This document shows positions 1 through 33,845 of a stretch of DNA of 33,845 nt, one piece after another (the first letter of the stretch is position 1; every line of letters begins with the position of its first letter). The notes beneath the pieces were generated by a model. That model was not told the DNA's origin. It was given only the letters and a program-made list of their open reading frames with translations, and made no database searches. A program made the position numbers and the translations under genes. The DNA comes from a virus. Its lineage: Duplodnaviria > Caudoviricetes. The stretch covers positions 1-33,845 of IMG/VR virus record IMGVR_UViG_3300033076_000358. The stretch is one strand, 5' to 3'.

Positions 1-360
1 CCTCGTAGCACTGGTGGTGCTAACCCTGAGAAGATCACTGGAAGCATGACTCCTCCTAAGGCTGGTGCTCGTCCTTCGGTCGGTAAGCCTGCACCTGAGC
101 AGACTCCTCGTAGCACTGGTGGTGCTAACCCTGAGAAGATCACTGGAAGCATGACTCCTCCTAAGGCTGGTGCTCGTCCTTCGGTCGGTAAGCCTGCACC
201 TGAGCAGACTCCTCGTAGCACTGGTGGTGCTAACCCTGAGAAGATCACTGGAAGCATGACTCCTCCTAAGGCTGGTGCTCGTCCTTCTGTAGGTAAGCCA
301 GCCCCTGACCAGGCTCCTCGTGTTCCTGCTAAGCCTAACCCTGAAACTATTACTGGTAGC
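1..360 (+). repeat. 105-bp (35-aa) coding tandem repeat
   Basis: Unit cctcgtagcactggtggt... restarts at 1, 106 and 211. Identical to about base 287, then a degenerate partial copy from 316. Confidence 0.95.
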
Positions 361-618
361 AGGGGCGGTAAGGCTCCTAAGCCTGCTGGTGATGTTTCGG
401 CTCCTGGTGCCCGTCCAGTGAAGCCTGCTCCAGCACCTGCAGCACCTACTGTTTACCGTGCTAAGAAGGGTGACGGTTTGTGGCAGGTTGCTGAGAAGAC
501 TAAGCCTGCTGGTGGTAGCACTGCTGCTTGGTGGACGAAGATTAAGAAGTTGAACAGCACCAACGGTAAGGTGAACCGCACCTACACTGGCACTGGTGTG
601 AAACTACCTAAGGCGTAA
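1..618 (+). CDS. Pro/Gly/Lys/Thr repeat protein with C-terminal LysM domain (5' end outside window)
   Basis: Frame is open from base 1 (PRSTGGANPEKITGSM...). The C-terminus YRAKKGDGLWQVA...IKKLN...TYTGTGVKLP follows the LysM pattern (Y.VK.GDTLW.IA...N...I..G..L.LP). Confidence 0.75.
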   Translation, partial: PRSTGGANPEKITGSMTPPKAGARPSVGKPAPEQTPRSTGGANPEKITGSMTPPKAGARPSVGKPAPEQTPRSTGGANPEKITGSMTPPKAGARPSVGKPAPDQAPRVPAKPNPETITGSRGGKAPKPAGDVSAPGARPVKPAPAPAAPTVYRAKKGDGLWQVAEKTKPAGGSTAAWWTKIKKLNSTNGKVNRTYTGTGVKLPKA

Positions 619-2211: not shown

Positions 2212-5200
2212 TTATAGACCGGCTTGGTCTTTTCTTCGTGCAATGATCTCTTGCACTGCCTTTTTACGGATCTCGATAGTGTCGAGTTCAGTAAGTTTCA
2301 TACCGCTTAACCAGTTGTTGATTGCAATCCAGTGTTTACGGTTTAGGGCGTCTTTGTTCATTCCATCTTCAGAAGCCTTCTTAGCGATGTCTGGGAATAG
2401 CATTGCAGCCATAATATGTTGTGGGCCCCAACCAATCTTAGACAGGGCATCCTCTACCAACAGTCCAACAGTTTTGTTAGTGAATCTGCCGTTCTGGAGT
2501 AGCGGTGACCCGCCCTGGGTTTCCTTCTTATCAACCCAGTCTGTGTATAGCGAGATTAACAGTGGGTTTGATGATGTTACAAAGTTGTCGAATGTCTGGT
2601 AACCTACTTGACCGATTTGCTGTTCGATAGGGTCTTGGTTGTTGAAACGGAGTCCCTGTAGCCATGAACCTTGACCGAGTAGATCGGTTATAGGGTTGGA
2701 TACGGTGAACGATGCCATACGTCCCTGGTCGTTTAGTATGGTTGGGCTCATGTTGCCTCGCATATACCATGGACGTAACTGGTTGTTAGGGTCGAAGTCT
2801 CCGAAGCCGCTGTATTCGGCTCCTTGTGCTTCGCCCATAGTTTGCTGGAATCGTAGGATGTTGTTGGCAACACCTGGCTTGTCTAGGACGTCCATTAAGA
2901 CTGTTCCTAGCATTTTTGCTCGCCAGGTGAAGAATAGAACAAAGTTTCTTGTCCATTTCTGGTTCACGGTGCTTAAACCTTGGACCTGTGGGTGGACACG
3001 GTTTACTTGCTTTCCAGCATAGGCTGCTGCTTCTTCTAGCGAGTTCCAGTTGCCTTTCTGGATGATGTTGATGAAGGCTACGATTCTTAGCCAGTCGTCA
3101 CGAGTTCCTGCATTTCTTGCTAGGAATGCGTCTCCACGCTGGTATAGGTTAGGTTTTTTAACCTTTCCAAGCATTCCTGCTTCACGTAGTGCATCTACAC
3201 CACCAGCCTGGCTGTGAGGGACGACACCAGCATATTTGGTATACATGTCCCACCAGGTTTTGACTGGAATGTTTACTGACTTGTTCTGAACCTTAGTGGT
3301 GTAGGAAGTGCTGGTTAGTGGATCGTTTGCTGGGTTGAATTCGATTTGTCCCTTAGCGGTGCGACGGTCTAGTTTTGCTAGCATTCCTTCGATTGATTTG
3401 CGGTCTAGTCCTAGTTCGTCTACTGCTTGGCCTACTGAACGCATTACTTCAGCACCTCTAGCGTAGGCTAATGGTGAGTTGACGCCTAGGAATAGTGAGT
3501 TTGCTACGACTCCACCTAGTGTGTTCTGTATCCAGTTCTTTGGGGTGTAGTTGGTCATGCTCTTTTTGGCTATGTCTTGAATCCACTGCATCTTGAGCAA
3601 TGCTTTTTCTAGGGTTCCGTTGGCTTCTAGGTGCTTAACGTCACCCATGAATTTGGCTAGGCTTTGAATCTCTGAGGCTAGTGCTCTAGGGAAGTAGTAG
3701 CCTTTAGGTAGGTAGTGGAGCATTTCGGCACCGTGTGGGATGTTTTTTGGTGGCACGATTTCGACTAGGTCGGCTGCTCGTGCTTCTTCCTTGCTGATGC
3801 TTTCTACAGGGAATCCGAATTTCTCTAGTTCGGCACCCATGATGCGAACTTCTAGGGTCTTACGGCCAGCAGTGTGTAGACCTACATATAGATCTAGTGG
3901 GTTGCTAATTTCCCATTCACGCCATTGGTTTGCAAAACCTTCAGGGTCTTTAATTGATTGTAGTGCGTAGGAGTCTCTAACCTTTTTAGGCTGAACAGTT
4001 GCTGTGCCTGCTTTTAGAGCGATCTCAGCGTCTTTACGGTTAGTGATTGCTTTACCGCTCTTGGTGTCAACAATTTCGGTGATTTCTCGACCCATTCCTT
4101 GGCCGATGTCTCTCAGGAACTTGTTGAATAGCCTAGTTTCGTATGCGGTGGCTTGGGTGAGGAAGTTCTTTTCTGCACCTGCCAGCATGCGAGAGTGTAG
4201 GATCCATAGGTCTGCTGCAGCGTCTCGTAGCCAGGAGTCTTCTGCTGGAATATAGTCGTCGAGCAGTTTGACGTCGTCAAGTAGGTTTGAGTATTCTTCT
4301 TTAGTCATGCCTTCGATGAGTCCTGATGCTTTAGCGTCAGCGATCTCTTCTAGGCGTTTCATTGCGTCAAAGGCTTTTTGTGCGACTTCGTCAGGCATTT
4401 TCTGGAATGCTGCGAAGGCTTCAGCGGATAGGTTGCGTCCGGTGCGTTCTTCGAATGACCCGAATTTTTCTTTCATAGCGTATGCGTGTTTTGCGACTGT
4501 TTCAGCAAATTCGCTTGTAACAGTTTTAGTGTTCATTACGATTGGGTCTGCTAGGTGGCGAACTTCATCCATTCCGTATGATGCGAACATGCGTAGTCCA
4601 CGGTCTAGGAATCCTAGCATTCGCAGGTTCTTTAGGATGGTGCCTTTTTCTGCGTGTAGGTTTACTGCGAACTCGTAGATTAGGTCGTCGTCAGCGTTCT
4701 TGTTTATGAGTTCCATAGTGTTTGTGAACATCATGTTTTGGAACAAGATTGGGTCTAGTGCTTCGCTTGCACCTTGCTGTAGTTCTTGGATGCTCTTGGC
4801 TTCAGCAGATAGGTCTTCAACCTTCTGGATTTCTTTAATAATGATTGCCTGGTGTGGCTGTAGTCGTGCACCGATGCGGGCTCCGAAGTCCATTTTGGCG
4901 ATGAGTTCTACTCGTGGATCGTTAGTTACGATTCCTGCAGCCTCGTTTAGGGCTCGTCCAGCGTCTTCTACGGCTTTAATGTTCATACCGTCGCTGGTGA
5001 ACTTGCTGTCTAGTAGTTGGAATAGGCCTTTGAAGATTGGTTCGGTTACTACGCCTGCTTCGTATTGTAGGCGTTTGTAAGCGTATCCTCCTCGAGCAAC
5101 ATGGTTTCTGTATAGTTGATCTGCTACGTCTTCTCTTAGTAGGTGGTCTACTAATGTTTCAATTTTGACTCTGGTGTTGAATAGGGTGGCTTCGTCGTTC

Positions 5201-8200
5201 ATTAGCGACTTAATCTTTATACCCTTTTCGGTCTTTCCACGGTCAATCTTTCGGATTGCGTTTTCCATGGCGTCGATCATTTCGCCTTTTAGTCGGCTGA
5301 TAATGTCGGCTTCGAACCACATTCCTTCTTTAAGGGCGGACATTCCGATGATTAGGAGTCTGGCTGCAGGTAGCATTGAGGTGATTGGTAGGCTGTCTAG
5401 GCGTCCAGTGAAGAAGAATTCTTTGCTCATTACTGGACCGAATACGTCCATGAAGTCTGTTTCGGTTAGGTAGACTGCGTGTTTACCTAGTTTCTCAATT
5501 TCAGCCTTTGTTAGTCCTTCGTCACCAAATTTTCCAGTGATCTTGGCTAGGTTGGCTAGTTCGCCTTTGGATAGGTTGATTGTTGAACTTGGGTAGATTC
5601 CTCGGGCGTTGAAGTATAGGTCACGGACCTGTAACACTTTCTTAGTGTAGACGGTCATGAATTCTCGCCATGCTGGAGAGTTCTTTGCTAGTTTTCGACC
5701 TTCAGCAATGTTTTCTAGTTGGAAAATAATTTCTTTCCAAGCAGTGTATAGGTTGTAGGTGTCGAAGTTTGGTTTGATAAAGACCTGGTCTTTTTTAGGT
5801 AGGGTTTTTGCAGTTTCTTTATCAACGTTTGCTCGTTGCATACGTCCAGCGAAGTCTTCGTAAACTAGGTTGGCTACTGGTCGAACTGCTGTGCCTTCTT
5901 CCTTAGCGATATAGCCTGGCATGTCTGTGAAGGTTCCGAATGCACGTCCAGCGGATAGGTCAGCGATGTCGACTACCCATGATTCACCGGCTTCTTCTAG
6001 CGTGTTTACGGCTGAGGTTAGCATGTGTAGGGTTTGGTCTACCGTTATTTCTGGGGCTGGTAGAGCGTCTGACATGGCTTTAATGTCGTCTCCAGCAGCG
6101 AATAGTTCGTTGCTGAACATGTCGTTCATTTGAGCCTGTTTTAGTTCTTCTTCGCTAATGTGTTTTTTAGCGGAGCGGATTAGTCCTAGGATGTCTGAAC
6201 GCTTCAGGATTTCAGCCTTGCTGAGCATCTTGTCTGCATCTTTAACACCTAATGCTTCTAGGACGGTTGCTACTTGTTCTTCTGTTGGAACTGGGCGTCC
6301 TGTTGCAGGGTTGATCTGTCCAGGTAGTAGGGTAGAGTTTTTGCGGTCTACGTAACTGTCTAGGAGTTCACGATAGTTTCTCCAACGGCTTCCGCCTCCA
6401 CCAAGTTTGGTCATGTTCTTCATGTGGCGTAGGGCAATTTCCCATTCGTCCTGGTCGAGAACTGTTAGGATTTCTTTGTTGCGTAGCCAGGAGATGAATA
6501 AGTTTGGGTTGCCTGTTTCGATAACTTTCAGGACGCTCATTTCGCCGTCCCATTCAACCTTCGCTAGGTTTGGGTAGTCTTTTTCTACAGCGGCTTCGAT
6601 CTTCTTTACGAGTCGGTCGAAACTCTTTTGTTCTTTAACTAGATCTAGGACTCCACCATCGCTCTTTACAACGAACTTGTGTAGTGGGGTTTCGATTGCT
6701 CGTAGGTCTGCTGCTGTTTCTGCGATTCGCATGTCGTATGCATGCCAGAATCTTGCGTTAATGTTTGCTTCGACACGTGCCACTGATGTGCTGTTAGCCT
6801 TAATTTCTCTCTGAATGAAAGATAGTAGGGCTTTCTTGTCTAGGCTTAGTGGGATGGAGCGGATTGCTTCTTTTCGTGCGATTGCTTCGATTGCAGCATT
6901 TTGGGCTCGCTCGTAGCGGGCTGCGATTAGGCGGTCGTAGAAGAAACGCTCAGTCTTGCTAAGTGCATTATATTTCTTTTTCTTGGCAGAGTTGATGACT
7001 GCGTCTACGATTAGGTGGGTTGCTTTTTCACCTTCAGCGGCGGCTACTGCTACACCGTTTTTAATGACGGCTGGAACCATTCCAGGGTTTGCTGGAAGGT
7101 TCTTAAACATGTCGATTACTTCTTTGGTGGCACTAATGTAGTTTGTTTTTAGTGCACGATCTGCAGCAGCGATTCCTTCAGGGAACTCTTCAGATACTAG
7201 GTCTTTCCCTGTGACTGCTCGACCTTCATCGATAATGATTGAAAGGTATGAGGTGTCTGCTTCTTTACCACGAGGGTATGGAAGGATAATTTTGTTTCTT
7301 GAGTATTCTTTACCTAAAGCGATCTTGGATTCGTAGATGTCGTCTTCAAGGTATTTGAGTAGTTCTTCGACTTTTTTGGTTAGTCGCTTCTCTTCGTTCT
7401 TTATGACTACGGCTGCACGTGATGAACCTGTTGCTTTACCAATGGTTCTGGTTCTTACTTCTAGTGAGTGAAGTAGTGGCGGGGTTACGTATGCGGTCCA
7501 TTCGTCAGTTTGTGCTAGTAGTTTTAGGGCTTCTGCACGGCTTTCAGCGGTTTTGAATGATGCTAGTGGTGGGATTCCTGCTTTGGCGGCCAATGCGTCT
7601 AATGCTTCAGCGAATACGCCTCCGTCTAGGGAGTCTCGAGTGTGGGAACTTGCAGCCCATGCATAGGCTAAGAATTCACTCTTTAGTTTCGCTGCTTCGC
7701 CTACTTTTGTTTCAGTGAAGATGCGGTCTAGTCCTTTACGTAGGACTGGGCCTAGTTTTCTGTTGTAAGTTCCTGTGACTGCGGTGAGTAGGGCTGATCC
7801 GTTGCTAGTGTCACCTACTACGTTGATTCCGTGTCGGCTTAACTGCATGATTGCTTGTAGTTTGGCTTGGGCTAGTTTTTCAACTGATTCGATTGCTAGG
7901 TCTAGTTCTGCCTGGCTTACAAGTTCTGAACGTAGTTTGTTGCGTCGTAGTCCTGCGTCTAGGGCGTCGATGACTTGGTTGTCGGTAAGTTTGGTGACCA
8001 TCGCTGCGGTAAGGGTTACTGGCTTACCTTTGATGTTGATTTTGATGGTTTTCTTTTCGATAGCCTTTGCGATTGCTTTTTTGGCGGCTACGATTTGCGA
8101 CATGCGGGCTGCTGTTAGGTCTTCCGCAATGTTGTCTAGGGCCACTCGTCCTTCGATTGCTGAAAGTGATTCTGAGCGGAGACCTAAACGGCGTAGGAGG

Positions 8201-10323
8201 GCTCTAAGTTCTTTGTCACGGATAACACCGGCAGCCTGCTGTAGTAGTCCGTAGATGTCTCCACGGCTTAGTTTGAGGGTGTTTCTGCCTAGTGCTTTCG
8301 CTATGGCTTTGTCTTCTTCTCCACTCCACATGTCGAATGAGCGGGCGGCATATGGCTGTGCGGTTAGTGGGTTGTATCCTCGTTCGATAGCGTTTTCGAT
8401 TGCTGCAGCGTCGTTTCCTTCGCCTGCTAGGCGTCGTGCAGCCCATTCTAGACGGGATGCGAATAGCGACATGGAGATTCCAGACTTCTTTAAGAGGTCG
8501 CCTGTGATCTCTGAGGCTGGTAGTGCAAGGTTTCCGTCTGTTGAACGGCTCATTACTGAGCGTAGGCGTAGCCAGTCGTTGGCTGTGTTGTCTGCGTTCC
8601 AGACCATAGCCTTGTTTTTCTTTTGGAAGTCGCTCTGTTTACGCTGTAGGAACTTTACTTCTCTAACTTCATTCTTGCGTCCTACAGTTCCGCCACCTTT
8701 ACGTTTGGTTGGGGCTCCTTGGACTGGTGCGTCTTCGAGGGTTACTCGGCCGTTTCCGCTTTTTACTTGACGGAAGCCAATTGGCTGTGAGGTTGCTTCG
8801 TCTAGGTAGCGTAGGTAGTCTGCGTTGGCTGGATCTGCTACGAAAGCGTCCCAGGCTGAGTAGCCTCCGTCACCGTCTTGACGGCGGACTGCACTGATAA
8901 TGTCGTCAGATAGTTTCTGAATTGGTGCTGCAGCGGCTAGTTGTGCACGTCCCTTGGTTACAGCGAAGATTCTAGATGGGCCTTCTAGGGCCATTGTAGC
9001 CTCGTCAGCGGCTCTTGTAGCACTTAGTGGGGCAGACTTGGTTCCTGCTGCTTCTGCAGCGTTCTTGAGGGTCTCAGCGGACTGTTTGACCATTGTCTTG
9101 CGACGGGCTACCACATTCGATAGGGTGCGTCCTAGTCGTGCTGCTTCCTCAGCGAGGAACTGGTCAGCCTGTTCCTTAGAGATCTTCTTGTCGGCTTCTA
9201 GGGCCGCCTTCTTTAACGACAGTTGCTGTTCGAGCATGTCGCTACCGAGCCGTAATACTTCTTCGTCTGGGAGGTCTGTGCCTGCTTTTGCGAGGGTTTC
9301 GTCTAGGTTCCTAGCGTATGCTCTAGCGGCAGACTTTGAAGCCCAACGGTCGAAAGCAGCCTGGTGTGCTTCCTGAAAACCTCTACCCATTTCCTTAAGG
9401 ATATATACGTATGGGTTGGTGTTTTCGATAGTGTATTTTGGTGCAGATAGTTCAATCTTGTTTCCTGCACGAGTGCGTAGGAATTTACCGTCAACTTTTT
9501 CTAGCGGTGCATAGAATGGGCGAGGCTTGTTGATTACTTTTCCTGCTGCTGCTGCTTTGTCGGCTGCAGTAACATAGCGGGCTGCAGTGGCTACACCACG
9601 TCCAGCACCTTTAATTGCGGCACCCGCACCTACAGTTAGGTAGGTTGTTGGGTCTAGACCTGCGTCCAGGATGAATCCTAGAGTGTTTTTCGCAGTCCAT
9701 CCGCCGAATGGGGTGTCTAGGTATACGTCTTCGCTGACTTTAGGGATTCCTGCCCCTAGCCATTCTTCGCTGTTGATTAGTTGGTCGAAGCGGTCGTAGG
9801 TTTTTCCGCCAGTTAGTTTGGCAATTTCGTTTTTAGCGTCTGGAACGGCTGAGTAGGCTAAACCTTCGAAGGTTCCGATTGGTGCAGCCCACATACCTTT
9901 CCAGAATGCTCCGCCTAGGGCTCCCCAGTCGTCTGACTGTAGACCGTCTGATAGGGCTTTGTTTGCGTCTGCAACAGCAGATATAGTGTTTGCGGTGGTG
10001 TTTAGAATTGCACGGCCTAAACCTGTGAACATGCGGAAAGCCCAGCCTACTGCACCCCATTCGCTGTAGTCGGCTTTCTCGTTTAGAGGCTTGGTTGGTC
10101 CGCTAAGGGCGTCGCCGTAACTGCTGCTTGAAGATAGTGGGTTGCTGCTTGCTGTTCTTTGTCCTGGACCGATTAGGCGGGCTGCTTTATTAGAGTAGTT
10201 AGCCCATGCTCCACCAGTGAGTTTGTCGGCTTTCGCTGATCGGGTTGCGATACGTGCGTTCGACATGTCACGAACAGATGATGAAATCTTGTTCGCCTTC
10301 GATAGGTAAGAGTTGTCTGCCAT
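2212..10323 (-). CDS. Very large internal virion / DNA-ejection protein (2703 aa)
   Basis: Last gene of a podovirus-type structural operon. Ala/Lys/Glu-rich helical composition, hydrophobic N-terminal patches (LDPTTYLTVGAG) and C-terminal PKNWIQN and FVLFFTW segments reminiscent of podoviral ejection proteins. No catalytic motif recognised. Confidence 0.65.
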   Translation of the reverse strand: MADNSYLSKANKISSSVRDMSNARIATRSAKADKLTGGAWANYSNKAARLIGPGQRTASSNPLSSSSSYGDALSGPTKPLNEKADYSEWGAVGWAFRMFTGLGRAILNTTANTISAVADANKALSDGLQSDDWGALGGAFWKGMWAAPIGTFEGLAYSAVPDAKNEIAKLTGGKTYDRFDQLINSEEWLGAGIPKVSEDVYLDTPFGGWTAKNTLGFILDAGLDPTTYLTVGAGAAIKGAGRGVATAARYVTAADKAAAAGKVINKPRPFYAPLEKVDGKFLRTRAGNKIELSAPKYTIENTNPYVYILKEMGRGFQEAHQAAFDRWASKSAARAYARNLDETLAKAGTDLPDEEVLRLGSDMLEQQLSLKKAALEADKKISKEQADQFLAEEAARLGRTLSNVVARRKTMVKQSAETLKNAAEAAGTKSAPLSATRAADEATMALEGPSRIFAVTKGRAQLAAAAPIQKLSDDIISAVRRQDGDGGYSAWDAFVADPANADYLRYLDEATSQPIGFRQVKSGNGRVTLEDAPVQGAPTKRKGGGTVGRKNEVREVKFLQRKQSDFQKKNKAMVWNADNTANDWLRLRSVMSRSTDGNLALPASEITGDLLKKSGISMSLFASRLEWAARRLAGEGNDAAAIENAIERGYNPLTAQPYAARSFDMWSGEEDKAIAKALGRNTLKLSRGDIYGLLQQAAGVIRDKELRALLRRLGLRSESLSAIEGRVALDNIAEDLTAARMSQIVAAKKAIAKAIEKKTIKINIKGKPVTLTAAMVTKLTDNQVIDALDAGLRRNKLRSELVSQAELDLAIESVEKLAQAKLQAIMQLSRHGINVVGDTSNGSALLTAVTGTYNRKLGPVLRKGLDRIFTETKVGEAAKLKSEFLAYAWAASSHTRDSLDGGVFAEALDALAAKAGIPPLASFKTAESRAEALKLLAQTDEWTAYVTPPLLHSLEVRTRTIGKATGSSRAAVVIKNEEKRLTKKVEELLKYLEDDIYESKIALGKEYSRNKIILPYPRGKEADTSYLSIIIDEGRAVTGKDLVSEEFPEGIAAADRALKTNYISATKEVIDMFKNLPANPGMVPAVIKNGVAVAAAEGEKATHLIVDAVINSAKKKKYNALSKTERFFYDRLIAARYERAQNAAIEAIARKEAIRSIPLSLDKKALLSFIQREIKANSTSVARVEANINARFWHAYDMRIAETAADLRAIETPLHKFVVKSDGGVLDLVKEQKSFDRLVKKIEAAVEKDYPNLAKVEWDGEMSVLKVIETGNPNLFISWLRNKEILTVLDQDEWEIALRHMKNMTKLGGGGSRWRNYRELLDSYVDRKNSTLLPGQINPATGRPVPTEEQVATVLEALGVKDADKMLSKAEILKRSDILGLIRSAKKHISEEELKQAQMNDMFSNELFAAGDDIKAMSDALPAPEITVDQTLHMLTSAVNTLEEAGESWVVDIADLSAGRAFGTFTDMPGYIAKEEGTAVRPVANLVYEDFAGRMQRANVDKETAKTLPKKDQVFIKPNFDTYNLYTAWKEIIFQLENIAEGRKLAKNSPAWREFMTVYTKKVLQVRDLYFNARGIYPSSTINLSKGELANLAKITGKFGDEGLTKAEIEKLGKHAVYLTETDFMDVFGPVMSKEFFFTGRLDSLPITSMLPAARLLIIGMSALKEGMWFEADIISRLKGEMIDAMENAIRKIDRGKTEKGIKIKSLMNDEATLFNTRVKIETLVDHLLREDVADQLYRNHVARGGYAYKRLQYEAGVVTEPIFKGLFQLLDSKFTSDGMNIKAVEDAGRALNEAAGIVTNDPRVELIAKMDFGARIGARLQPHQAIIIKEIQKVEDLSAEAKSIQELQQGASEALDPILFQNMMFTNTMELINKNADDDLIYEFAVNLHAEKGTILKNLRMLGFLDRGLRMFASYGMDEVRHLADPIVMNTKTVTSEFAETVAKHAYAMKEKFGSFEERTGRNLSAEAFAAFQKMPDEVAQKAFDAMKRLEEIADAKASGLIEGMTKEEYSNLLDDVKLLDDYIPAEDSWLRDAAADLWILHSRMLAGAEKNFLTQATAYETRLFNKFLRDIGQGMGREITEIVDTKSGKAITNRKDAEIALKAGTATVQPKKVRDSYALQSIKDPEGFANQWREWEISNPLDLYVGLHTAGRKTLEVRIMGAELEKFGFPVESISKEEARAADLVEIVPPKNIPHGAEMLHYLPKGYYFPRALASEIQSLAKFMGDVKHLEANGTLEKALLKMQWIQDIAKKSMTNYTPKNWIQNTLGGVVANSLFLGVNSPLAYARGAEVMRSVGQAVDELGLDRKSIEGMLAKLDRRTAKGQIEFNPANDPLTSTSYTTKVQNKSVNIPVKTWWDMYTKYAGVVPHSQAGGVDALREAGMLGKVKKPNLYQRGDAFLARNAGTRDDWLRIVAFINIIQKGNWNSLEEAAAYAGKQVNRVHPQVQGLSTVNQKWTRNFVLFFTWRAKMLGTVLMDVLDKPGVANNILRFQQTMGEAQGAEYSGFGDFDPNNQLRPWYMRGNMSPTILNDQGRMASFTVSNPITDLLGQGSWLQGLRFNNQDPIEQQIGQVGYQTFDNFVTSSNPLLISLYTDWVDKKETQGGSPLLQNGRFTNKTVGLLVEDALSKIGWGPQHIMAAMLFPDIAKKASEDGMNKDALNRKHWIAINNWLSGMKLTELDTIEIRKKAVQEIIARRKDQAGL

Positions 10324-19259: not shown

Positions 19260-19569
19260 ACTCTTCACGGATGGAGTCGAAATCATACTCATTGTTGTCA
19301 TCTACCTCTTCGTAATTATCCGTTACTAGCGGGGCTTGTTGGTGTAGCGGTCTTAGTTGCTCGCTTGCGGCTAGGATTTGCTGGAACGCTATCGGATCCT
19401 TCGTTGACAGTAGGCTCACTGCTTTCGCTAGGAGTTCCGTCGTCGACTCGTTCTGTTTCACTAACCCCAGCGTCGCCTTGTTCAACGTTCTGGTCATCAG
19501 CCAAAACGATAGCGGCAGGATCAGCAAGCAGGTCAGCACTAGCATTAATAGAAATGTCTCGGATGTCAT
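19246..19569 (-). CDS. Membrane protein (single N-terminal TM), overlapping the upstream gene
   Basis: SD GAAAGG 7 nt before ATG; hydrophobic FLLMLVLTCLLILPLSFWLM; stop overlaps the portal start region. Confidence 0.65.
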   Translation of the reverse strand: MTSETFLLMLVLTCLLILPLSFWLMTRTLNKATLGLVKQNESTTELLAKAVSLLSTKDPIAFQQILAASEQLRPLHQQAPLVTDNYEEVDDNNEYDFDSIREEYGIK

Positions 19570-24589: not shown

Positions 24590-25254
24590 TCTTCTAAGAC
24601 TTTAGGGATGCTTCCGTGGCGGCGAGCCTCATCACGTCTACGCTTATCCTCAGCATGAATCATCTCATCTGGAGCAAGAGTCTTCGGATCATGAGGCAAG
24701 CATTCATGGTCGATAGGTAAGAACGGGACACTAGCATCTACACGACCATCAGGTGTTGTAGGACGGTCACCATAGTATGGGTCGTTGGTTGCATGCCAAC
24801 GGTTGTGGCATTCAGCACAGATACGGTGAATGTTACCTTCAACATTCATCATCGTGTTCTTGTCAGGTCCGTGGTGGATAGCCTCAGCAGGATGTCCTGG
24901 ACACCCAATGATTGGTTTCACACCGCCACCGGCATTCTTTAGCCAAGCCCACTCACAAACCATACCTGGCTTGATAGGGAACTTTTTGGCTGCTTCTTTA
25001 CGGCCTGTAGAGATCGGGTCAGCATACTGGTCAAGCGGTTTACTGCCTGTATAGCCGTCAAAGTAGGCTTCAAGTTCAGGCTTATCGTCCAGCATAGATG
25101 CGGCTGCTTCGTATGCGTCTGATGGTTCCAGGGAGAAGGCTCCCTCGCAGCAACATTCCATGTCGTCTGCGAGGTTGCCGTTCCACATGTCTGCACATTC
25201 GTCGTGAAAACCTGCCCTGCAAGCAAGGCATACGTCTTTAGTAGTGGTCTTCAT
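24586..25254 (-). CDS. HNH endonuclease with additional Cys/His cluster
   Basis: IHHGPDKN...N.HRICAECHNRWH; N-terminal CLAC...H..C...CCC. Start placed at MKTTTK. Confidence 0.7.
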   Translation of the reverse strand: MKTTTKDVCLACRAGFHDECADMWNGNLADDMECCCEGAFSLEPSDAYEAAASMLDDKPELEAYFDGYTGSKPLDQYADPISTGRKEAAKKFPIKPGMVCEWAWLKNAGGGVKPIIGCPGHPAEAIHHGPDKNTMMNVEGNIHRICAECHNRWHATNDPYYGDRPTTPDGRVDASVPFLPIDHECLPHDPKTLAPDEMIHAEDKRRRDEARRHGSIPKVLED

Positions 25255-27756: not shown

Positions 27757-27800
27757 TGAAGACCCCGATAGGAAAGGAGACGAAACTATCGGGGTCTCCA
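27757..27800 (-). other. 15-bp RNA hairpin with anti-SD loop TTTCGTCTCCTTTC between ssb and primase
   Basis: 12-bp perfect core agaccccgatag/ctatcggggtct, extended by a G-U pair on the - strand. Confidence 0.8.
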
Positions 27801-27802
27801 TC

Positions 27803-27811
27803 ATTGTAACA
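27803..27811 (-). promoter_or_regulatory. Extended -10 TGTTACAAT
   Basis: Predicted start site ~27797 coincides with the 5' arm of the hairpin. Confidence 0.55.
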
Positions 27812-28387: not shown

Positions 28388-28410
28388 GGTGATCGTCTCC
28401 TAAACGATTT

Positions 28411-32525: not shown

Positions 32526-32643
32526 CTAACTCCTGTTCATCATGCATATCGTTCATATAATCACAAACACATACGCCTTTGCAATAGTTGCAATACTCGT
32601 CATCCGGTATTTCATCAACATCATGCCAATCTTCAGGTATCAT
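32512..32643 (-). CDS. 43-aa acidic Cys-rich microprotein (not in the ORF track)
   Basis: MIPEDWHDVDEIPDDEYCNYCKGVCVCDYMNDMHDEQELDDRE; SD AAGGGAG; ATGA overlap with the upstream stop; fills the gap between neighbours. Confidence 0.7.
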   Translation of the reverse strand: MIPEDWHDVDEIPDDEYCNYCKGVCVCDYMNDMHDEQELDDRE

Positions 32644-32840
32644 TTGTTCTCTCCCTTGATAAGAGCGATAAAGTCTGCCTTAGAGTATTGAATAGTATTG
32701 CCGTCAGGTCTGAATACCCCGATAAAGTCATCAGCAAGTAATTCTTCTATCTGTTTGGTAATGAGTTGTTTTGATTCTTTGATTCCAGACTTACGCCCAA
32801 ACTCAAACCACTTGGCTTTTAGTTCATCTGTGTCGCTCAC
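32640..32840 (-). CDS. Hypothetical early protein
   Basis: GTG start with SD AAGGAG; coupled to neighbours. Confidence 0.65.
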   Translation of the reverse strand: MSDTDELKAKWFEFGRKSGIKESKQLITKQIEELLADDFIGVFRPDGNTIQYSKADFIALIKGENK

Positions 32841-33275: not shown

Positions 33276-33563
33276 CTACTCACTCTCCTGAACAAACCTG
33301 CTCACACCATGATCCGCCTCAAGATGCACACCATCAGCAATACCATGAGCAACCGCATCCAACACTTCAGCCAACTCGAAACACACTTCACACGAACAAG
33401 CCCGGTAAATCTTATCCAACTCAACCAGCAAATCAATCACCGCACTACGCTCACGCAAAGTCGCTGCACGATCAGTCAACGACATCACAGACTCCATCTG
33501 TCCAGTCAACTCCGTAAGATTCTTCGTAATACGCTCAATCTGGTCACTAACTTTTCTAGACAT
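33276..33563 (-). CDS. Hypothetical early protein (CxCxxC)
   Basis: SD AGGAG; first gene after the non-coding array. Confidence 0.7.
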   Translation of the reverse strand: MSRKVSDQIERITKNLTELTGQMESVMSLTDRAATLRERSAVIDLLVELDKIYRACSCEVCFELAEVLDAVAHGIADGVHLEADHGVSRFVQESE

Positions 33564-33617
33564 AACTACTCCTAATCAACCACTAAAACCACTAACTGTT
33601 CCAGTCAGCGTGTCAAT

Positions 33618-33845
33618 AAAAAAGTGTGCGACCCGACGCAGTGATAGGGGGAGGACACTACATCGGGTCACACACTTATACAGGCAAGCAGAAATCACAA
33701 AAACATCTTGCCTGTTTGTGTTACCAAGCGACATCACAAGCCGAAAGGATTACCTGTGATACTCGATAACACTCGTTAGGGAACCAACCTAACGAACACT
33801 ATAACCCCTGCCAGACGGAGTAACTGGGGGCGGTAGGAATCTGGC
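33618..33845 (-). ncRNA. Putative structured ncRNA: at least five tandem hairpins with pyrimidine-rich/anti-SD loops, ending in a terminator
   Basis: Hairpins at 33622-33677, 33680-33715, 33718-33772, 33773-33795 and 33810-33845. Mispairs are G-U on the - strand. U6 tract overlapping the 3' end of the last stem (33618-33623). Confidence 0.7.

Follow-up and report, generated by a model that had tools for sequence, protein, structure and literature searches.

What is the tandem run of RNA hairpins at the end of this phage contig, and what would its loops read? The window, meaning the whole stretch of 33,845 nt analyzed here, covers 33.8 kb of a podovirus-like phage of about 44 kb, whose relatives' records reach 44.8 kb. 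A family scan of its 36 proteins identified a terminase, a P22-type portal, a major head protein, a primase-polymerase, a helicase, WhiB, and an excisionase-like HTH protein; apart from the last, the scan named no integrase or repressor. The capsid protein shares 36% identity with Arthrobacter phage Jasmine and 83 to 97% identity with seven uncultured records of up to 44.8 kb. Relatives were collected via helicase and GATase searches. A WhiB-seeded search gave none, the array region had no blastn match among 50,697 phage records, and an exact search for the loop of the outermost hairpin (H5) across viral contigs returned 0 hits.

Of the four runs covering most of the window, two carry a freshwater label, and the contig of one relative sits in a metagenome-assembled genome (MAG) labeled Actinomycetota bacterium, where mis-binning is possible. 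Genomes sampled from the genus of that MAG measure 1.0 to 1.9 Mb, and its 16S rRNA has the 3' end GGAUCACCUCCUUUCU. We infer that the host of the phage family is a small freshwater actinobacterium.

Elsewhere, the contig begins inside a 105-nt tandem repeat (window 1-361) of a Pro/Gly/Lys-rich ORF adjoining the endolysin, a repeat that accounts for the assembly break at the window start. A 2703-aa gene (2212-10323, minus strand) with an extended -10-like element ahead of it lacks Pfam hits and matches a PHROG weakly, at its C terminus alone; its product is likely an internal virion protein. At 32639-32837, a 66-aa ORF is absent from runs X3 and X4 (a 197-nt skip), and the ends of this ORF form a direct repeat over the ribosome-binding site (RBS) and start region, which suggests gene gain or loss through recombination between repeated RBS cassettes.

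Architecture of the hairpin array

The array and the gene that follows it comprise these features:

33810..33845, minus strand: H5, the first hairpin visible; 22-nt loop at 33817-33838 with tracts of CCUACC, C5, and ACUCC; the contig end truncates the stem
33773..33795, minus strand: H4; 8-bp stem and 7-nt loop at 33781-33787, not anti-Shine-Dalgarno (anti-SD)-like
33718..33773, minus strand: H3; bulged stem, loop UAAUCCUUUCGG at 33741-33752
33680..33715, minus strand: H2; 9-bp stem, U-rich loop at 33689-33706, similar to a loop in L002
33618..33677, minus strand: H1; stem at 33622-33677 of 22 bp (19 Watson-Crick, 3 G-U), loop UCCUCCCCCUAU at 33644-33655, then U6
33276..33563, minus strand: first small gene past the array; 95 aa, no family; opens the small-gene/excisionase-like/WhiB cluster that fixes synteny

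Refolding recovered the five stems and loops on the minus strand where the initial annotation had drawn them. H5 is the positional counterpart of the first hairpin in L001 and L002, whose loops run CCUCC..ACUCC; as cut by the contig end, it retains only 7 bp and is absent from the centroid and from the 232-nt minimum free energy structure. An outer extension of H4 competes with the outer stem of H3. Contigs of runs X1 to X4 cover the array, with no alternative letter among those listed.

The minus strand of the array folds at -105 kcal/mol with a z-score of -8.26, a value that none of 200 shuffles equaled, versus a z-score of -3.95 for the plus strand. Among 298 segments of 228 nt on both strands, the array is the most stable (z-score -9.2; the next is -7.0; 10 shuffles each). 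We also tallied single internal non-Watson-Crick positions in 32 distinct stems, defined by Watson-Crick pairing in the window and its relatives, which as kin are not independent: 12 are G-U, two C-U, one U-U, and none A-C. Both the folding energies and this strand bias bear out the earlier proposal that the fold belongs to a minus-strand RNA. A DNA cruciform, considered as another candidate, is disfavored by the 12 to 0 count of G-U over A-C; a single-stranded DNA hairpin is possible.

The loops were further proposed to be different anti-SD sequences. This description holds for H5, H3, and H1, the H3 loop having UCCUUUC in common with the 16S tail, and does not hold for the U-rich loop of H2 or the 7-nt loop of H4. 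At the other end of the array, H1 and its U6 tract likely form a terminator-like end of an early transcript. A U tract follows the last stem in L001 and L002 as well and is absent in L003, L004, L009, L010, and L173. In L003, L004, L093, L094, L095, L009, and L010, the motif CG(A/G)(A/G)TAGAA recurs after the last hairpin and before GATase; the clades whose stems precede it have no U tract, and the motif is a possible processing or promoter signal.

Position behind the early GATase gene

In relatives, the array slot lies between a class II glutamine amidotransferase (GATase) gene, which has an Amidoligase_2 gene before it, and the small-gene cluster. This slot holds one to five hairpins with unrelated stems and C/U-rich loops, so that the pattern noticed in the window, in which stems change and loops stay rich in C and U, recurs across the family. 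RNAalifold gave no consensus for 11 last hairpins because the unrelated stems do not align. An X4 contig of 2877 nt joins positions 33661-33845 to the GATase and amidoligase genes, and because it passes from the array into the GATase gene, the array can extend past the window by at most about 50 to 90 nt, a gap estimated from record positions. The expectation that the array continues beyond the contig end can thus hold for about one more hairpin at most.

In the closest relatives (L001-L004, L093, L094, and L100), the array begins 4 to 7 nt past the GATase stop. A sigma-70 scan and a listing of TANNNT matches revealed nothing conserved that could serve as its own promoter, with no conserved -10 element before the array. 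These two observations lend no support to the initial view of a free-standing multi-guide sRNA and indicate that the array is most likely the 3' tail of the early amidoligase-GATase mRNA or a processed piece of it.

The same operon carries other palindromic elements in relatives. A single perfect 15- to 17-bp hairpin with a C-run loop occupies the amidoligase/GATase intergenic region of L001 (5348-5398) and L002 (5946-5992), and in G002, the loop of the hairpin at this place pairs over 12 bp with a G-run 138 nt ahead of the first early gene. A conserved palindrome lies upstream of amidoligase in L001 (3397-3438), L002 (3995-4046), L003 (581-618), and L004 (3581-3618); its arms presumably resemble DnaA boxes. 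Searches with the first early protein gave no name.

Hairpins with pyrimidine loops are concentrated in this family. At least one such hairpin within 250 nt of the GATase stop was counted at 16 of 17 family loci versus 8 of 94 other GATase loci, and at least two were counted at nine family loci versus none of the others. The loci came from a set of 159, of which 18 were too short and 30 were duplicates; 12 had been dropped beforehand (11 repeat fetches of the same contigs, plus L128, whose GATase frame is unreadable). Family membership was defined by downstream marker genes, with L095, L097, L099, L102, and L103 assigned by sister position in the GATase tree or by near identity to a marked locus. 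L017, L038, L053, and L098, which nest in the GATase tree without an array, were counted as others; three of them are 60- to 91-kb contigs. The GATase genes of the larger phages (L017, L038, and L053) end in at most one plain hairpin. In other phage groups (L023, L026, L027, L039, L045, and L111), one long hairpin with a C/U loop lies about 90 to 160 nt behind GATase, and in L039 and L045, its loop fits the phage's own GATase RBS (about -11 kcal/mol).

Loops and the ribosome-binding sites of early phage genes

The initial annotation cast the loops as silencers of RBSs in host and/or phage mRNAs. The phage side of this idea is supported by a fit, by prediction, between the loops of relatives and the RBS regions of their own upstream early genes. 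For the window itself, the target genes fall past the end of the contig, and the claim of co-variation therefore concerns relatives rather than the window's own upstream genes. We scored whole arrays with an accessibility correction (opening energies) and compared own-clade with swapped fits by exact permutation of tree clades. Own fits exceeded swapped fits for the amidoligase RBS (p = 1/720, 6 clades) and the GATase RBS (p = 0.006, 7 clades). With sister clades merged, the values are 1/24 for amidoligase and 6/120 for GATase; for picked loops, they are p = 0.005 (nine loci) and p = 0.0013 (11 loci); for five clades with curated starts, 0.042 and 0.008; and for four clades with automatic starts, 0.125 and 0.042. 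Each test comprises only 4 to 7 clades; the limits of the arrays and the starts of four amidoligase genes were chosen manually or from an SD-like pattern, and gene starts are heuristic, with some wrong.

Among 24 coding control segments, none reached p ≤ 0.01 and one reached p ≤ 0.05, and 14 other orthologous RBS sets gave p values of 0.083 to 0.93, with none at p ≤ 0.01; these control RBSs vary less between clades and so have lower power. The effect per clade is -1.85 and -1.46 kcal/mol for the two upstream genes versus -0.47 to +0.63 kcal/mol for the 14 other sets. Examples include the loop AUCAACUCC with the RBS GGAGUUGAU in L001, UAUCACU with AGUGAUA in L103, and CUUUCUGCUUC with GAGCAGAAAG in L173. 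Several loop letters in these examples leave the 16S tail where the RBS leaves a perfect SD.

The fit is uneven across genes and clades, and the loop-RBS duplexes are short (7 to 14 bp). The amidoligase RBS ranks 2 to 7 of 26 to 55 own RBSs in all five genomes. The upstream genes fall in the top quarter of own RBSs in 9 of 16 cases, compared with 10 of 16 by plain SD strength and 6 of 16 once SD strength is removed; the first gene and GATase are therefore not steady targets. Loops of clade E (L009, L010, and L093) fit their own sites poorly. Among the window's loops, H3 forms a 9-bp duplex with the RBS of the first early gene in both nearest relatives (G001, rank 1 of 48; G002, rank 2 of 47), and H5 and H1 fit the amidoligase and GATase RBSs of these relatives weakly (-4 to -9 kcal/mol for the window's loops on the G002 sites). 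When run contigs were aligned to L002, the upstream RBSs were covered by just 36 nt, at the RBS and start of GATase (L002 6003-6038).

The reading we favor, which we hold to be slightly better than an even bet, is that the early message shuts itself off, with the array loops pairing with the RBSs of their own upstream early genes and so capping early protein output. The early amidoligase-GATase message would run on into the array as its 3' tail, and the unpaired loops would base-pair with the amidoligase RBS and, less surely, with those of GATase and the first gene. Pairing could occur in cis, by fold-back after transcription, or in trans, through a stable decay product, and translation of the early genes would stop when the early RNA has been finished or has accumulated. 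The model expects CCGAAAGG-like and GGAGU-type sites in the window phage, fitting H3 and H5. The model does not account for H2 or H4.

A second unit of the window, a single hairpin (P) in the replication region, is built on the same plan and consists of the following features:

28393..28401, minus strand: RBS AGGAGACGA of a 190-aa gene; fits the P loop best among the RBSs of its genome (rank 1 of 36), equaled by 0.5% of 417 crude host RBSs
27803..27810, minus strand: -10-like element directly upstream of the P hairpin; conserved in 7 of 7 aligned genomes
27757..27800, minus strand: P hairpin; 15-bp stem, loop UUUCGUCUCCUUUC; between the 190-aa gene and the primase-polymerase gene

The P loop, UUU(C)GUCUCCUUU(C/U), is kept in nine of nine genomes, and the P stem shows two-sided changes at 7 of 15 pairs (seven sequences); covariation could be counted for this hairpin alone. 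In four of the nine genomes, the best own target of the loop is AGGAGACG, the RBS of the adjacent upstream 190-aa gene; this RBS ranks second or third in four more, and in G007 it falls outside the top four, the loop there fitting the exonuclease RBS best. In the host set, no more than 0.5% of RBSs match the P loop equally well. Given the conserved -10-like element before it, the P hairpin may open the primase message, and its loop could reach the primase RBS 7 to 8 nt past the stem in a predicted 6-bp, pseudoknot-like pairing. An exact search for the P loop across viral contigs found three, all of them already among the contigs analyzed, and searches with the 190-aa protein gave no name.

Considered together, the two units raise the doubtful but possible idea of a protein-free RNA timing circuit in which each operon has a private RBS dialect that its loops read. 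The array would serve the early amidoligase-GATase genes and the P hairpin the AGGAGAC-type replication genes, loop and RBS would co-evolve like address and label, and the poly-C loops would hit host G-rich RBSs or kin phages.

The array might instead be purely structural, a terminator with stems guarding the early mRNA 3' end and C/U-rich loops that merely stay unpaired. Its place right behind a stop codon, the U6 after H1, and the very stable stems suit such a role. However, this reading leaves unaccounted for the 10- to 25-nt loops, their co-variation with two RBSs alone, and the near-invariant P loop on a changing stem, and the GATase genes of larger phages make do with at most one plain hairpin; we regard it as very improbable.

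Host targets and comparison with known RNAs

The host side of the silencing idea fared less well. The set of candidate-host RBSs, 417 crude calls, was drawn from 26 stretches of DNA in G008 and six members of its genus. On these RBSs, H1, H3, and H5 are not enriched for hits relative to shuffled loops: of 30 shuffles each, 7, 9, and 25, respectively, scored as well. The best own amidoligase site is equaled in fit by 2 to 10% of crude host RBSs in G001, G003, G004, and L173 and by about half in G002.

Poly-C loops of 6 to 12 C have no own RBS partner, as GGGG occurs in 0 to 6% of own RBSs. A conserved G-run cluster lies 100 to 330 nt ahead of the first early gene (in oriented coordinates, G001 33564-33610, G002 19483-19531, G004 25141-25200, and L173 1408-1458) and could mark a genome end, a leader, or a promoter region. 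Tested against this cluster at 100 to 250 nt before the gene, poly-C loops rank first for 3 of 13 loops (G002 twice and L173 once), without an own-over-swapped pattern. Lacking both an own RBS partner and a steady partner in the G-rich leader, these loops may play a role like that of 6C RNA. As for 6C itself, of 41 genomes in the candidate host family, one has a hit above the model's cut-off and 10 others have weak hits; G008 has none.

These loops are the main argument for host shut-off, in which the processed array would act in 6C fashion on G-rich or GAAAGG-type host RBSs and the fit to own RBSs would be secondary. GGGG occurs in about 10% of crude host RBSs, and the 44 loops match the 16S tail slightly better than shuffles do (mean 5.05 versus 4.61 nt, p = 0.002; kin not independent). 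The 6C RNA acts in this way without chaperones (PMC6486639). Against this stand the failure of H1, H3, and H5 to match host RBSs more often than shuffled loops, on a host assignment that is inferred and RBS calls that are crude, and the loops' adherence to phage-specific RBS letters. Self-avoidance of loop complements was rejected as a signal: on the window sense strand, GAAAGGA occurs 0 times (4.1 expected) and GGGGA once (7.3 expected), but host DNA is just as poor in GAAAGG and GAAAGGA (GAAAGG 156 of 307 expected), leaving no phage-specific avoidance. We consider host shut-off unlikely.

A protein could also be the partner if the C/U-rich loops act as a sink for an RNA-binding protein or nuclease of the host. 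Rho prefers C-rich single strands, and Rho_RNA_bind was found in five of five genomes of the candidate host genus (Rho_N, 0 of 31). A poly-C length of 5 to 12 suits a protein better than a fixed target, yet the loops are short and held by stems, and a decoy needs no match to phage RBS letters. Such a decoy strikes us as every bit as improbable as a purely structural role.

No Rfam family matches the array under gathering and E-value thresholds, which gave only miRNA-family noise; this outcome agrees with the initial annotation. For 6C RNA (RF01066), the window gave no hits over the gathering threshold, the array none at E ≤ 10, and 10 relative loci none at E ≤ 5; of five genomes, none exceeded the cut-off. 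The 6C RNA (PMC6486639) shares with the array C-run loops, adjacent stems, the likely host phylum Actinobacteria, and, as a model, chaperone-free RBS pairing, whereas the array has one to five hairpins with unlike loops and no own promoter found and is phage-borne. The 6C stem-loops have six conserved cytosines; the window loops have C5, and some relatives have C6 to C12 and others none. The cuckoo RNAs (RSs0680) resemble the array in layout, with two to four adjacent hairpins, variable stems, anti-SD-like loops, and one cluster co-transcribed behind an upstream gene; they belong to alphaproteobacteria, and all their loops carry CCUCCUCCC (PMC4615179). That motif is present in 0 of 44 distinct array loops, which differ mutually and between phages. 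A comparable layout appears in the 9 of 17 family loci with at least two hairpins, the window having five.

Among phage RNAs, the c4 antisense RNA of P1 and P7 (RF01695) is one whose loops pair around an RBS of the phage's own mRNA, as predicted for the array, with a specificity that differs between related phages (PMC12197685). RF01695 was found in none of five relatives' genomes at E ≤ 1 and not in the window; moreover, the array consists of simple tandem hairpins downstream of its predicted targets, and no antirepressor target was seen. The likeness suggests superinfection control, in which a resident RNA would silence early RBSs of incoming close kin and loop and RBS would diverge as immunity types. 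The joint change of loop and RBS is the P1/P7 pattern (PMC12197685), and amidoligase-GATase pairs, whose possible roles in phages are discussed in PMC10580990, have been proposed there as a superinfection block. However, cross-clade fits can exceed own fits (clade F loops on the clade G amidoligase RBS, -20.4 versus -18.5 for the own fit), no integrase or repressor was named among the 36 window proteins, and the genomic tests give the same outcome as for self-regulation. We judge superinfection control improbable.

A precedent for self-shut-off, alongside c4, is the icaR 3' UTR of Staphylococcus aureus, in which a C-rich motif pairs with the SD region of its own message, in cis or trans (the study leaves both options), blocking initiation and drawing in RNase III (PMC3868564). 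As in icaR, the array of relatives lies behind the stop codon of a gene whose SD its loops are predicted to match, and the P hairpin does likewise. By that account, icaR has one motif (UCCCCUG), a 40-nt pairing, and one host gene, whereas the array has several loops on long stems in a phage operon; loop and RBS change together across clades, and a second, single-hairpin unit exists besides. A literature search, mostly of open-access papers, found no description of the array element; one review tabulates 38 undescribed phage sRNAs, among which related elements may figure.

In the cultured relative Jasmine (L243), an 18-bp hairpin with the loop CUUCCCCCAUA lies behind ATPase gene 41 (35844-35890, minus strand). 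The annotated RBSs that fit it best are those of late genes 10, 19, 26, and 21; the hairpin is not syntenic with the array, and none like it was found in Shocker or DS1. With this one similar C-loop hairpin, Jasmine may serve as a bench model.

Early-gene shut-off in lytic phages is usually credited to proteins. If self-shut-off is true, the array would be a compact, chaperone-free switch, and regulation by an icaR-type 3' UTR would extend beyond a single staphylococcal gene to a whole family of phages. The co-varying loops and RBSs amount to built-in natural compensatory pairs across clades, and the array gives a handle on the timing of the little-studied amidoligase-GATase module.
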